Shown here piece by piece: positions 39,406-43,170 of a stretch of DNA of 64,000 bases; position 1 is the stretch's first letter; every line of letters starts with the position of its first letter. The notes under the pieces are model-generated. The model searched no databases. It saw only the letters and a list, made by a program, of their open reading frames with translations, and had not been told where the DNA came from. A program made the translations under genes and the position numbers. Where the stretch lies: assembly GCA_965207065.1 (NCBI GenBank), contig OZ242260.1, forward strand, positions 4,352,001 through 4,416,000, read 5' to 3'. This stretch comes from a bacterium (GTDB taxonomy: Bacteria; UBA8248).

Positions 39406-40605
39406 ATGTCAAAGACAGGACGGGACCTGCTCGAGGCCGCGCGGGGCGATGTTCCTGAGATCACGGCGGAAGAAGTGAAGACCGCTATCGATTCGGGCGC
39501 CGAGGTGGCGCTCATCGACGTGCGCGAACCCGACGAGTTCCGGGGCGGCTACCTGCCGGGCGCCGAGCACGTGAGCCGCGGATTCCTGGAACTCAAGATC
39601 GAACAGGTCGTTCCCGATAGGACGACGCCCATCGTCGCTTACTGCGCGGGCGGCGTGCGCTCGCTGCTCGCGGGCCAGGCGCTGCAATCCATGGGCTATC
39701 AGAACGTGAAATCCATGGCCGGCGGATACGGGAAGTGGAAAGACCTGGCCTTTCCCGTGCAAGTGGACAAGCAGATGAGCGCCGAGCAGTTAAACCGCTA
39801 CAGCCGCCACTTCCTGCTCTCCCAGATCGGGGAAAAAGGCCAGTCCAAACTCCTGGACGCCAAGGTCGTCCTGATAGGCGCGGGAGGTCTGGGCTCTCCC
39901 ACCGGTCTTTACCTGACCGCCATGGGGGTGGGCAACATCGGCATCGTGGACCTGGACGTCGTGGACATGAGCAACCTGCAGCGCCAGATCGTCCACACGA
40001 ACGACCGCGTGGGAATCTCCAAGGTCGAGAGCGCGACAGCTACCCTCACCGCGCTGAACCCGGACGTGAACGTCATCGCGCACGAAGATAGAATCAACCG
40101 CGACAACGCGCTCGACATCCTCAAAGACTACGACGTCATCGTGAACGGGGCGGACAACTTCCCGACGCGCTACCTCGTGAACGACGCGGCGGTATTTCTC
40201 GGGAAACCCATCGTCGACGCCTCCATCTTCAAGTTCGAGGGCCAGGCCACCGTCTATCATCCCGGAGAGGGCGGCCCCTGCTACCGCTGCCTCTACCCCG
40301 AACCGCCGCCACCCGGCATGGTGCCCTCCTGTCAGGACGCAGGCGTGCTCGGCGCGCTTTGCGGCACCATGGGATCCATCCAGGCGACGGAGACGGCCAA
40401 ACTCATCGTTGGCTTCGGCGAACCGCTGATCGGCAAGCTGCTGATGTACGACGCGCTCAAGTCGCAGTTCAGGACGCTCAAGATCAGGCGCGACCCCGCC
40501 TGCCCGGTGTGCGGAGACAGCCCCTCCATCACCGAGCTCATCGACTATGAGTTCTTCTGCGGCCTCACGGAAGCACCCGCCGGCGGCGCCGCCAACGGTC
40601 ATTGA
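39406..40605 (+). CDS. moeB: Rhodanese-MoeB/ThiF adenylyltransferase (MoeZ-like)
   Basis: N-terminal rhodanese (DVREPDE, YCAGGVRS), RYSRH, GAGGLG, SNLQRQ and two CxxC. Confidence 0.9.
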   Translation: MSKTGRDLLEAARGDVPEITAEEVKTAIDSGAEVALIDVREPDEFRGGYLPGAEHVSRGFLELKIEQVVPDRTTPIVAYCAGGVRSLLAGQALQSMGYQNVKSMAGGYGKWKDLAFPVQVDKQMSAEQLNRYSRHFLLSQIGEKGQSKLLDAKVVLIGAGGLGSPTGLYLTAMGVGNIGIVDLDVVDMSNLQRQIVHTNDRVGISKVESATATLTALNPDVNVIAHEDRINRDNALDILKDYDVIVNGADNFPTRYLVNDAAVFLGKPIVDASIFKFEGQATVYHPGEGGPCYRCLYPEPPPPGMVPSCQDAGVLGALCGTMGSIQATETAKLIVGFGEPLIGKLLMYDALKSQFRTLKIRRDPACPVCGDSPSITELIDYEFFCGLTEAPAGGAANGH

Positions 40606-40666
40606 TGGGAACTAAACAGGCCGTCAAGCAGATATAGGGAATCAACGAAAGCCGAACCATAATACA

Positions 40667-40697
40667 CCCCCGGGGCGAAATGTTCCGGGGGTTTTTC
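40667..40697 (+). terminator. Rho-independent terminator after moeB
   Basis: CCCCCGGGGC-GAAAT-GTTCCGGGGG followed by TTTTT. Confidence 0.8.
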
Positions 40698-40714
40698 TAA
40701 GTCCTACATGAAAA

Positions 40715-40757
40715 TCAAAAAATATTTCTTGCAAAACAATAATTTTTGACTTATAGT
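40715..40757 (+). promoter_or_regulatory. Sigma70-like promoter of the RT cassette with flanking inverted repeat
   Basis: TTGCAA (40729-34), 17 bp, TATAGT (40752-57); inverted repeat 40715-26/40738-49 (11 of 12 bp). Confidence 0.6.
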
Positions 40758-40763
40758 TAGAAA

Positions 40764-41455
40764 AGATGTGGCAGGGTGATTCGCCCTGTATGTTCTTTGA
40801 CAATCCATCTTCGGGTATGGTGTTTAGGCCTACCATCTGACGCCTCTCCAAGCGTTCGTTTTTCTGGGTGCTTGCTCTTGAAATTTAGGCAATGCCTAAA
40901 ATCCAGTGTAAAACTCCGAACACTGTGATTACCCGTTTTATGCAGCCTGAGACATATCGATGCTTCAGCCCTTTCTTGGGGAGCATCGGTTCTTTGGTCA
41001 GTAAGCATTTGAAAATGAAGTATGCATATAACGGGCGTTCGCTCTATTGATGGACATTATAGGCGGGCTAACGAATGAGGGGTCTTAAGGGAGACTCCGC
41101 CAGTTTCTAGTCGAGAACAGAGGAGGTGAACAGATGAAAATAACTTAAGCACCAATAAATTCCGCCCGCCTGATTTATCCACAGAATAGGAAAATAAAAA
41201 AATGGATAAAAATCGAAACTCGAAGATGGGCCTTGAGAGGGCCGCAAAAGACATTATCAAAGTCGGTTACAAACTTCTTCGACAACAAAGCGACCCTCTC
41301 ATGGCGGGGACTTCAAAAGTAGTTCGTCGCCGACTCAAGCAGTTGGAACGTCAGCTACAAAATAAGCGAGTTCCACTTCCACAAAAAGAATTGGACAAAA
41401 TCGCTACAGAAGTCGCTGACACGATTAGCTGTCTTATGAAGTCCCTCATTCGTTA
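40764..41455 (+). ncRNA. Putative retron msr/msd-containing structured (hybrid) RNA overlapping the small ORF
   Basis: Many stems, e.g. 40884-40900, 40932-44/41023-35, 40958-88, 41061-68/41164-71, 41069-81/41443-55, 41230-45/41290-305 and 41306-15/41437-46; lies upstream of a retron RT. Boundaries inferred. Confidence 0.6.
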
Positions 41456-41522
41456 CTTATTTTCCGCAATCCACCATTGCGAGTTATTCATAGTATGGAA
41501 ACTAAAATTGGCAACACATTAA
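41202..41522 (+). CDS. Small orphan protein, putative retron effector
   Basis: 106 aa, basic and helical with hydrophobic C-terminus; AGGA SD; overlaps the HTH start by 28 nt. Confidence 0.55.
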   Translation: MDKNRNSKMGLERAAKDIIKVGYKLLRQQSDPLMAGTSKVVRRRLKQLERQLQNKRVPLPQKELDKIATEVADTISCLMKSLIRYLFSAIHHCELFIVWKLKLATH

Positions 41523-41800
41523 AAGTATTAAGGGTGGCTGCAGGCATAAACCAAGCGACCATGGCAAAAAGGCTAGAAATTACCCAAAATTATTTATCAC
41601 TTGTCGAAAATAACCACAAAGAACCAAGTCTCTCTTTTCTAAAAAAGTTCGCCGGCAATTTTGACATTCCCCTCGGGTATTTTTTGTGGCTCGCATTGGA
41701 TAAACAAGAAAATAACGAGGAAGAAGAGTTACGTGAAAAAATGGACTTGTTGCTAGAGCAAATATTGGTAGGCAGAAGAAAAAAAAATGCCTGGAAATAA
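41495..41800 (+). CDS. XRE/Cro-C1 family HTH protein (retron-associated)
   Basis: IGNTLKVLR..AGINQ..MA..L.ITQNYLS.VENN.KEPSL..L; ATG 41495. Confidence 0.9.
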   Translation: METKIGNTLKVLRVAAGINQATMAKRLEITQNYLSLVENNHKEPSLSFLKKFAGNFDIPLGYFLWLALDKQENNEEEELREKMDLLLEQILVGRRKKNAWK

Positions 41801-42734
41801 AAAGGCAAAATTAAAATCATTCTGGAACATACGAACGTCGAAAGATTTGTCACGCCTGCTCGGTGTAAAAGAAGAAATCTTAAACAAGATTTCGCAATCA
41901 GCACATTTGATGTACCGATCGCGAAATGAGCCTAAGAAAACTGGAGGGACTAGGCCAATAGACAGTCCTAGTAGTCATCTAAAATGGATACAATCAAAGA
42001 TTAACAAGTGTTTATTGCAAAGAACTCGCGTCCATAAATCTGCAATGGGAGGTATCCGCGGTAAAAGATTGAAAGACAATGCGGAAAAACATGTAGGAAA
42101 AAATTTAGTTGGCAAATTCGATTTAGAAAATTACTTTACTAACATTTCTCATAAGCAAGTCTATAATCGATTTTGCTCTATGGGGTGCTCCCCAGATGTG
42201 GCTAGAATTCTCACTAAACTAACAACATATAAAGGAAGAATTCCCCAAGGAGCGCCAACAAGTACTATGCTTGCGAATTTAGTAGCTGCTTATGCAAGAG
42301 ACAATCATAGTTTCAATGCAAGGATTGATTCGCTGGCTAGAAAACGTAATGCAACCGCTACTACCTGGGTTGATGATGTCACAATCTCGGGCCCATGTTA
42401 TATCCAAAAAGAAGCCAATACTTTCGAGAAAATTGCCAGGCAAAGTGGTTTCATTCCAAACACTGATAAAAATGAATTCATAAACAGCAACCAGCAACAA
42501 TTCGTCACTGGGGCAGTTGTCAATCAAAAAGTAAGCGCCTCAAAAGACTACAGAAAAGCTATACGAGCCGAACTCCATCAACTAAAAGTCCATGGTCCAA
42601 GCAACATTTGCAAAGAACCAATCAAAAAAGTAAAGGCGAAGCTTCGGAGCAAAATTGCACATGTAGACAATCTGAACCACGAACAAGGTGAAAAACTTCT
42701 AAAAGAATTCAACGCTATCGACTGGGACTCTTAA
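41787..42734 (+). CDS. Retron-type reverse transcriptase
   Basis: PKKTGGTRPI, LKWIQ, NAEKH (region X NAxxH), FDLENYF, IPQGAPTS, WVDD, FVTGAVVN (region Y VTG); 315 aa with no fused domain. Confidence 0.93.
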   Translation: MPGNKKAKLKSFWNIRTSKDLSRLLGVKEEILNKISQSAHLMYRSRNEPKKTGGTRPIDSPSSHLKWIQSKINKCLLQRTRVHKSAMGGIRGKRLKDNAEKHVGKNLVGKFDLENYFTNISHKQVYNRFCSMGCSPDVARILTKLTTYKGRIPQGAPTSTMLANLVAAYARDNHSFNARIDSLARKRNATATTWVDDVTISGPCYIQKEANTFEKIARQSGFIPNTDKNEFINSNQQQFVTGAVVNQKVSASKDYRKAIRAELHQLKVHGPSNICKEPIKKVKAKLRSKIAHVDNLNHEQGEKLLKEFNAIDWDS

Positions 42735-42813
42735 AAGTCGCCAAACATAAGAAATATCTAAACAAAAACACTGAGAAACTTAAAAAAACTAACTCCTCCA
42801 ATCAGAAAAATCC

Positions 42814-43170
42814 CTACCCAACCTCCTCCAGCCTGGCCGCATCCATCACCGGTCTTATGGGGTATTGGCCCCGCAGGAGTTCGGCGAGAAAACCCAGGTG
42901 TTCGGCGAGGGCCGACATGTGCGCGGCGGCGTAGCGGGCGGATAGCGCACCGGCCTCTTGCGCCAGGGCTTCGCGCGCATCTGTGGCGGGAGCCTCCTGG
43001 GCGGCCAGGGCGTTAAAGGCATCAAGCAGGGCGCAGATGTCTTCATGCGCTCCCGCATATTCCGTCTTCAGCGCATAGGGGCTTCTCAGGATGAGGTGCA
43101 CGGGGTTTTGCGTGTTCGATGACTGATCGAGCATGCAGCGGCTTCGTCTCTGGTCGTAGTTTTCGGGCAT
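42814..43170 (-). CDS. Hypothetical protein
   Basis: ATG 43170 with GAGG SD directly downstream of the MBL gene; host-like GC. Confidence 0.5.
   Translation of the reverse strand: MPENYDQRRSRCMLDQSSNTQNPVHLILRSPYALKTEYAGAHEDICALLDAFNALAAQEAPATDAREALAQEAGALSARYAAAHMSALAEHLGFLAELLRGQYPIRPVMDAARLEEVG

Follow-up and report, generated by a model that had tools for sequence, protein, structure and literature searches.

In the window, a 64,000-nucleotide (nt) stretch of the forward strand of contig OZ242260.1 (GenBank assembly GCA_965207065.1, positions 4,352,001 to 4,416,000) from a bacterium of the lineage UBA8248, the coding sequence (CDS) of a small open reading frame (ORF) folds into two long, back-to-back hairpins. 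By gene content and order the locus is a Type VI retron, because the neighbours of this ORF are HTH_VI and RT_VI according to PADLOC, in the order SP-HTH-RT, and the small ORF is the SP gene of that operon. The hairpins very probably form part of a long structured Type VI retron transcript, in which the messenger of the small protein SP is at the same time a folded regulatory RNA. An earlier reading, made from the letters of the window without database searches (the sequence-only reading), had described the hairpins but had not recognised the retron context, which accounts for the feature as a whole and consists of the genes directly downstream, one for a helix-turn-helix (HTH) protein and one for a reverse transcriptase (RT). 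Four DNA loci, all with the gene order SP-HTH-RT, were compared throughout: the window itself, L001 (also L002), which is a syntenic copy from a congeneric genome, with an RT that is 84% identical, L004 from another genus of the same family, and L006, a metagenome contig.

Folding of the SP coding sequence

The two hairpins within the SP gene are the following:

41230..41305, + strand: stem-loop A, in which the codons for L-E-R pair with those for D-P-L (from repeats, folds of the four loci and covariation)
41306..41446, + strand: stem-loop B, at whose base the codons for A-G-T pair with those for K-S-L (likewise from repeats, folds of the four loci and covariation)

Both stems, as well as the 13-nt long-range repeat noted by the sequence-only reading, were recovered by a repeat search. 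The arms of stem A (41230-45 and 41290-305) are 16 nt in length and 88% complementary, and those of stem B (41307-19 and 41433-45) are 13 nt in length and 92% complementary. The 217-nt stretch folds as exactly two back-to-back hairpins with a minimum free energy (MFE) of -81.5 kcal/mol, compared with -47.7 +/- 4.1 kcal/mol for dinucleotide shuffles (z -8.23; 0 of 200 shuffles as stable). The excess persisted against synonymous-codon-shuffled controls, as the sequence-only reading had proposed to check: for codons 10-82 (41229-41447) the observed energy of -81.7 kcal/mol compares with -51.1 +/- 4.2 kcal/mol when synonymous codons are permuted and with -42.8 +/- 5.4 kcal/mol when codons are resampled from the codon usage of the surrounding island, with a z of -7.28 and 0 of 500 controls as stable under both schemes. 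For six 219-nt control windows taken from the HTH and RT genes, z ranged between -1.67 and +1.17. Folding of larger regions yielded z -7.29 for 41069-41455 and z -7.22 for 40740-41530. Furthermore, permutation of synonymous codons over the whole CDS gave z values of -5.36 for the window, -7.42 for L001, -7.62 for L004 and -3.26 for L006 (0, 0, 0 and 2 of 300 permutations as stable, respectively), and hairpins A and B appeared at the same codons when the four loci were folded separately.

The inner pairings that had been drawn for stem B (CGACT at 41331-35 with AGTCG at 41411-15, and TGGAAC with GTTCCA) are complementary on paper but do not occur in the MFE structure. The inner helix of that structure joins 41350-58 to 41412-20, and it is this helix that L001 supports through two-sided compensatory changes at 41355/41415 (C-G to U-A) and 41357/41413 (A-U to G-C). 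Across the four loci, the seven pairs of stem A (helix 5 of the covariation analysis) are paired in 100% of cells, with two pairs changed on both sides, and the 17 pairs of stem B (helix 6) in 88% of cells, with five pairs changed on both sides. The alignment in which the inner pairs were compared with L001 and the other loci was codon-based and not structure-aware, such that the inner pairs scored as broken in L004 (33 of 69) and L006 (30 of 69) reflect misaligned hairpin interiors as much as genuine loss. The segment 41432-61 is the sole 30-nt window that is 100% identical to L001.

Conservation of SP as a protein

A word-indexed search returned five close SP homologs (78-96% identity, 103-107 amino acids (aa)), and an exhaustive HMMER search of 1.84 billion representative proteins identified 17 distant representatives at E<=1e-3. 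Alignment A2 comprised 19 rows after the removal of P0001 and P0004, which are near-duplicates of the query, and of P0015, one of the 17 representatives, a protein of 4364 aa that matched in 16 short stretches and was judged to be a repeat or coiled-coil artefact. The conserved blocks of the alignment, L-E-R, D-P-L-x-A-G-T-x-K, R-L-x-Q-L-E and K-S-L-I-R-Y, are followed by variable hydrophobic tails. In all four loci the frame is open for 100-106 codons in AT-rich DNA, down to approximately 35% amino-acid identity, and the ATG and an upstream ribosome-binding site (RBS) are kept. Comparison of the window with L001 gave a ratio of nonsynonymous to synonymous substitution rates (dN/dS) of 0.28, with 14, 11 and 23 differences at codon positions 1, 2 and 3, respectively. 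These sequence comparisons indicate that the SP ORF is a real conserved gene under purifying selection.

An AlphaFold2 model of SP, built from the 19-row alignment, consists of three helices (residues 3-27, 32-53 and 61-105) with a mean pLDDT of 79.8. A look-up in the ESM Atlas gave recognition under the threshold, its matches being eukaryotic hypothetical clusters that were treated as chance. The predicted complex of SP with the HTH protein reached an ipSAE of 0.62 versus 0.01 for the best control, with at least 86% of contacts in agreement among three runs and a partner pLDDT of at least 72; the same ipSAE is reached by 116 of 157 solved complexes and by 2 of 215 mismatched pairs. At the predicted interface, the C-terminal helix of HTH packs with helices 1 and 3 of SP. 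To our knowledge, complexes of this HTH-SP type have so far only been modelled, and we know of no solved structure. By analogy with the SPs of Retron-Vpa2 and Retron-Sen3, which are compared below, SP may act as the toxin of the retron.

Across 16 distant members of the family, conservation is higher at residues whose codons lie in helix strands than at the remainder (0.65 versus 0.50; one-sided Mann-Whitney p 0.006), and the most conserved peptide motifs of the family are those encoded by the helix strands. The results support a double constraint on the SP gene, as a three-helix protein and as a set of RNA helices. Such a dual constraint had been proposed by the sequence-only reading together with dN/dS and compensatory substitutions as its checks, and it is upheld by the purifying selection (dN/dS as given above), by the excess folding in all four loci and by the compensatory changes in the stems.

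The retron operon

The SP gene lies in a low-GC island of 2.1 kb (GC 0.38-0.44 versus 0.60-0.66 in both flanks), bounded by a terminator-like hairpin (40666-92) that ends the upstream gene and by a convergent ORF downstream. The island contains three overlapping + strand ORFs in the order SP-HTH-RT:

40729..40757, + strand: sigma-70-like promoter, TTGCAA-17-TATAGT (the -35/-10 pair and its spacing are also present in L001, L004 and L006)
41202..41522, + strand: SP gene, encoding a small helical protein of 106 aa, the presumed retron toxin (ORF, homologs, dN/dS, model)
41495..41800, + strand: gene for a Cro/C1-type HTH protein, the presumed antitoxin or regulator (PADLOC HTH_VI, Pfam HTH_3; 28-nt overlap with the SP gene)
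41787..42734, + strand: gene for the retron reverse transcriptase, 315 aa (Pfam RVT_1, PADLOC RT_VI; 14-nt overlap with the HTH gene)

The HTH protein matches PADLOC HTH_VI with an E value of 4.8e-25 (profile positions 1-86 of 92) and Pfam HTH_3 with 4.8e-11. The RT has RT_VI as its top PADLOC match (E 3.2e-67, 224.8 bits, profile positions 3-278 of 279) in addition to Pfam RVT_1 (E 1e-14); the RT_III-A profile scores almost equally (224.0 bits, E 6.5e-67), and the Type VI assignment is therefore carried by the HTH profile together with the gene order. The features by which Type VI retrons are recognised are found here, namely an RT that scores best with RT_VI, an HTH gene overlapping the start of the RT gene, and SP upstream of HTH. 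With the NCBIfam retron models the RT scores below their cut-offs. No family match was obtained for SP in Pfam, NCBIfam or PADLOC, and a search of 40500-43000 with all Rfam families at E values up to 10 gave only a chance microRNA match (E 6.4).

A single promoter-like site was seen, with no terminator between the leader and SP, and judging from the promoter the transcript would start near 40764. The public-run data consist of Logan contigs only, with pieces present in two metatranscriptome libraries: X11 covers 40807-40949 and 41953-42096, and X5 holds three pieces of the RT gene, although such contigs do not demonstrate transcription. A variant contig in X4 (41106-41502) carries seven differences; five of these fall in 41229-41447, four at unpaired positions and one turning a C-G into a U-G pair. 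The retron island occupies an identical site, between the same high-GC genes, in the window (40650-42800) and in L001 (1850-3960).

Leader architecture and long-range pairings

The presumed transcript of each locus was folded alone, from 7 nt past the conserved -10 box to the SP stop codon (742-776 nt). The order of elements is alike in all four MFE folds: a 5' hairpin, the long-range inverted repeat IR-A, two stacked helices, inner hairpins, a start-region hairpin, stem A, stem B and a 3' hairpin. A second long-range repeat, IR-B, is the 13-nt repeat mentioned above. The elements in addition to stems A and B are:

40771..40789, + strand: 8-bp 5' hairpin, followed by the invariant TCTTTGA at 40794-40800 (MFE folds of the four loci)
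40805..40816, + strand: 5' arm of IR-A, which forms the outer stem of the leader domain (partner strand 41218-29 in the window's MFE fold)
40818..40847, + strand: 5' strands of the two helices stacked on IR-A, with partners at 41122-41154 (equivalents in all four loci, of different sequence)
40932..41035, + strand: long hairpin with a fast-diverging interior, the best msd candidate (MFE fold; identity profile against L001)
41069..41081, + strand: 5' arm of IR-B (perfect 13-nt complement of 41443-55)
41079..41098, + strand: hairpin right after the 5' arm of IR-B (folds; two-sided changes, helices 2-4)
41122..41129, + strand: invariant Shine-Dalgarno-like octamer GGAGGTGA, in the basal stem (the only 8-mer common to the four leaders)
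41171..41215, + strand: hairpin in which the SP start codon is base-paired (TATCCA with TGGATA), with the weak RBS AGGAAA (41188-93) in its loop (window and L001)
41218..41229, + strand: 3' arm of IR-A, reaching from the third position of SP codon 6 through codons 7-9 to the first position of codon 10 (MFE folds)
41443..41455, + strand: 3' arm of IR-B, within the ORF, encoding S-L-I-R-Y of the conserved K-S-L-I-R-Y (repeat, covariation)
41465..41481, + strand: short hairpin near the 3' end of SP, before the HTH start (terminator-like without a T run; equivalent in all four loci)

The 5' hairpin contains one pair that covaries between G-C and A-U and ends 15 nt before IR-A in each locus, and TCTTTGA is common to all four. 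The IR-A arms pair in the other three loci as well, those of L004 and L006 being different in sequence, and the duplex energies range from -13.4 to -18.2 kcal/mol. In L004 and L006 a different hairpin, placed over the RBS, occupies the start region. In these models, closure of the leader would bury the start codon and positions +17 to +28 of the messenger.

IR-B is found at the same relative place in the four loci, with three of its ten pairs changed on both sides. Its 3' arm, which covers SP codons 81-85 and lies 67 nt before the stop codon (41520-22), is also inside the ORF in L001, L004 and L006. The segment CCGC (41098-41101) is complementary to GCGG (41303-06), which lies at the junction of stems A and B. 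RNAalifold, applied to the four sequences, selected IR-B together with stems A and B and this CCGC/GCGG helix. IR-A and IR-B cross and are mutually exclusive in nested folds, and they represent either alternative states or a pseudoknot. The conformational switch suggested by the sequence-only reading is thus plausible: CCC at 41443-45 belongs both to the 3' arm of stem B and to the IR-B arm, as had been noted, so that IR-B competes with stem B for these bases, and it excludes IR-A in nested folds.

Over 46 chosen pairs, 92.9% of cells pair versus 41.6-53.3% when the partners are slid by 1-3 columns, and two-sided changes are seen at 15 pairs, where the slid controls give 1-3; values as high as those observed were reached in 0 of 500 shuffles. 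These figures derive from four loci, two of them close kin, with the tested structure taken from the same alignment.

Within the leader, identity to L001 drops to 0.47-0.60 at 40938-41026, compared with 0.8-1.0 over most of the remaining RNA; by analogy with Vpa2 and Sen3, the hairpin at 40932-41035 is the best candidate for the msd. A near-perfect 13-bp hairpin (40879-40905, arms 85% complementary) was also observed, with 40878-40907 being 97% identical to L001; this element, among the best conserved of the leader, may be a protein-recognition stem-loop. The octamer GGAGGTGA lies approximately 73 nt upstream of the SP start and pairs with an upstream pyrimidine-rich strand in the four MFE folds, with a structural strand, a decoy or a standby ribosome site as candidate roles. 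A conserved leader peptide driven by it was considered and rejected: at ideal spacing there is a four-codon ORF in the window (41134-48) and in L001, a GTG in the SP frame in L004, and nothing in L006.

Comparison with published systems

Two related Type VI retrons are described in preprints. The RNA of Retron-Vpa2, termed hyRNA, is approximately 470 nt long and holds the msr-msd as well as the CDS of a toxic SP; its RBS and AUG are sequestered in stems, and its 3' end returns to base-pair with the first arm (Zhang et al., bioRxiv 10.1101/2025.10.22.683967). The same preprint maps a multicopy single-stranded DNA (msDNA) of 63 or 86 nt to the non-coding stem-loop of the first arm by Spacer-seq and gel-band sequencing, and reports that HTH represses reverse transcription and that translation of SP needs the msDNA; conserved 7-nt direct repeats in the msd loop and in a riboregulator loop are proposed there to link msDNA and riboregulator. 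Vpa2 is given as the sole Type VI retron with a mapped msDNA. The present locus resembles Vpa2, as far as is predicted from sequence, in that one transcript would hold template and toxin CDS, the start region lies in stems, the CDS forms an arm of its own and an a1/a2-like repeat connects the 3' part to the leader by pairing. It differs in the length of the predicted RNA (approximately 760 nt versus approximately 470 nt) and of SP (106 aa versus 55 aa). For the predicted sequestration of the start region, a start-region hairpin and IR-A are present in the MFE folds of all four loci, and for the predicted return pairing of the 3' part, IR-B is conserved and covaries.

In Retron-Sen3 (cl2075), single-stranded DNA (ssDNA) and SP are made constitutively and HTH is the antitoxin (Garcia-Rodriguez et al., bioRxiv 10.64898/2026.04.27.721009). 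For the Sen3 lineage this preprint describes a conserved 5' stem-loop ahead of the non-coding RNA (ncRNA), a long-range repeat (IR1-IR2) that flanks the SP gene, 18 base pairs that covary inside the SP CDS, which is said to be 'under RNA structural selection', and the leader stem-loop SL3 as candidate template. The SPs of Vpa2 and Sen3 are both reported to be experimentally toxic, and the order SP-HTH-RT is given for about 27% of HTH-bearing entries. The likenesses to Sen3 extend to this gene order, to a conserved stem-loop just upstream of the 5' repeat, to terminal repeats that close the leader over the SP translation start region, to a long internal stem-loop with a non-conserved core, to a second long-range repeat between the leader and the distal side of the SP gene, to covariation within the SP CDS and, in the models of both, to the placement of the HTH C-terminal helix on SP helices 1 and 3. 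Conversely, the distal repeat arm lies within the ORF here (codons 81-85 of 106) and after the stop codon in cl2075, SP has 106 aa versus 79 aa, the RT box reads W-V-D-D versus Y-V-D-D, and the host belongs to an uncultured small phylum rather than to the Beta- or Gammaproteobacteria.

A canonical retron ncRNA, such as that of Ec86, is non-coding and approximately 150-250 nt long, and its msDNA acts as an antitoxin. The locus shares with the canonical msr-msd an RT downstream of a structured RNA bounded by inverted repeats, and a variable long hairpin as the likely template; unlike it, the RNA here also encodes the effector. In Type I toxin messengers such as hok, a compact fold with long-range pairing between the leader and the distal part keeps a small toxin messenger inert. 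This resemblance is one of analogy and not of homology, the control elements here being an RT, its DNA product and HTH, with no antisense RNA antitoxin.

A toxin gene within a retron RNA was already presented in these preprints of 2025-2026, and the locus is a further example rather than a new kind of system. With it, the design reaches one more SP family and an uncultured bacterial phylum. It also offers a clean natural case of double coding, in which the strands of stems A and B and of the long-range repeat encode the peptide motifs L-E-R, D-P-L, A-G-T and K-S-L-I-R-Y. Additionally, the mutually exclusive IR-A and IR-B provide mutable targets for the coupling of reverse transcription to toxin translation, the issue that divides the Vpa2 and Sen3 models.

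Proposed mechanism and alternative explanations

It is proposed that one promoter gives rise to an RNA from approximately 40764 that would comprise a 438-nt non-coding leader and the SP CDS (approximately 760 nt) and run on into HTH and RT. IR-A and the two stacked helices would close the leader on itself, and IR-B would tie SP codons 81-85 back to the leader; the closed leader and stems A and B may keep SP translation low and scaffold RT and HTH. RT would copy a leader hairpin into msDNA, most likely 40932-41035 and perhaps as far as the 5' arm of IR-B, in which case the msDNA would share sequence with the coding arm of IR-B and could compete with it. Upon phage attack, accumulation of msDNA or remodelling of the RNA might shift the balance between IR-A and IR-B such that SP is made, as in Retron-Vpa2, while the C-terminal helix of HTH might bind any SP made early, as in Retron-Sen3, and free SP would stop growth of the infected cell. 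The transcript ends, the msDNA, the toxicity, the trigger and the defence function are in each case inferred for this locus.

Several observations weigh against a retron transcript that is messenger and regulatory RNA in one. IR-B is missing from the MFE structures; imposing it carries a penalty of +8.5 to +19.4 kcal/mol, the duplex alone being worth -18 to -20 kcal/mol. Direct 7-nt repeats of the Vpa2 type were not found in the leaders, where each of the 7-mers common to all four (TCTTTGA, GGAGGTG and GAGGTGA) is non-repeated. Vpa2 and Sen3 themselves differ in mechanism, with translational control in the former and post-translational control in the latter. In a Type VI-like module on a Riemerella anatipestifer plasmid, the SP gene folds no better than its permuted controls (z -0.63; 74 of 300 permutations as stable), from which it follows that a strongly folded SP gene is lineage-specific and not universal in Type VI. 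The near-tie between RT_VI and RT_III-A and the narrow basis of the covariation, both given above, count in the same direction.

It is possible, though less likely, that the locus is the same retron with an SP fold that does not gate translation, SP being constitutive, control by HTH post-translational and the hairpins a scaffold for RT and HTH or a stabiliser against nucleases. Sen3 is reported to make SP and ssDNA constitutively despite a structured SP CDS, and the leader layout of the window (a 5' hairpin followed by the 5' repeat) resembles that of the Sen3 lineage; furthermore, the predicted HTH-SP complex passes its controls. Against this, the start codon is paired and IR-A lies over +17 to +28 in all four loci, as expected of translational repression, and the SP RBS of the window (AGGAAA) is weak, although neither point is decisive.

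The sequence-only reading had called the SP hairpins msd-like, which is probably wrong. Taken to its full extent, the idea would make IR-B the a1/a2 priming duplex, G 41082 the branching residue and hairpins B and A the msd, yielding an msDNA of approximately 200 nt antisense to the toxin messenger. We consider this improbable, despite the fact that the IR-B state has the canonical ordering of a retron ncRNA, with a repeat arm, a G, short stem-loops and long hairpins ahead of the second repeat arm, and that IR-B is conserved with compensatory changes in the four loci. The likelier template is the leader hairpin at 40932-41035, which has the variable interior typical of an msd, whereas the SP hairpins lie in coding sequence under purifying selection; in the published accounts, the Vpa2 msDNA maps to the non-coding first arm and the candidate template of Sen3 is the leader stem-loop SL3. 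Were the msd reading of the SP hairpins true, template and effector gene would be the same nucleotides, and reverse transcription (with RNase H) would destroy, mask or unfold on demand the toxin message.

Finally, that the ORF is untranslated and the region a pure ncRNA, its open frame a by-product of the conserved RNA, is very hard to credit: SP lacks a family match in the three databases named above and its top peptide motifs coincide with RNA helices, such that part of the protein conservation could stem from the RNA, but against this stand the frame open in four loci with its ATG and RBS kept, the low dN/dS with an excess of third-position differences, the 17 protein representatives, the confident three-helix model with its predicted HTH interface, and the toxicity reported for the Vpa2 and Sen3 proteins.

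Relatives and distribution

Counting the window's own genome, SP was detected in 3 of 44 genomes of the window's order and in 3 of 51 of its phylum. In the SP search of the genus, the other 21 genomes were without the retron island. The RT search of genome contigs gave 98 pattern matches and one locus. Searches with the SP alignment A3 produced 220 pattern matches in metagenome contigs and 148 in viral contigs, none of which was confirmed in either set, and the RT alignment A7 produced 116 pattern matches in viral contigs, likewise with none confirmed. By tblastn, SP had no match in plasmids and phages, and HTH had none in phages. The HTH alignment A4 recovered one locus from viral contigs, L008, which is a phage HTH gene without an RT, and three from metagenome contigs; of the latter, only L006 contains the SP region, L005 is without upstream DNA and the HTH of L007 is only 33% identical.

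On L005 (80-859 and 851-1747) a related HTH gene was observed (59% identity over the best tblastn segment), next to an RT frame that stops after approximately 112 residues, at the start of an opposite-strand ORF of at least 275 aa; our guess is that this ORF is a transposase whose insertion disrupts the RT.

The Riemerella anatipestifer plasmid (NZ_CP073240.1; L009, 2218-3629) encodes a 73-aa hypothetical protein, an HTH regulator and a 'reverse transcriptase family protein', i.e. a Type VI-like SP-HTH-RT module, and this module adjoins an IS30-family element and a florfenicol-resistance gene. Its 73-aa SP is unrelated to that of the window.

The active-site box of RTs is usually Y-x-D-D. It reads W-V-D-D in the window (42366-42377, RT residues 194-197), W-I-D-D in L006 and F-I-D-D in the Riemerella plasmid RT; for the two published retrons it is reported as YVDD in Sen3 and YADD in Vpa2.

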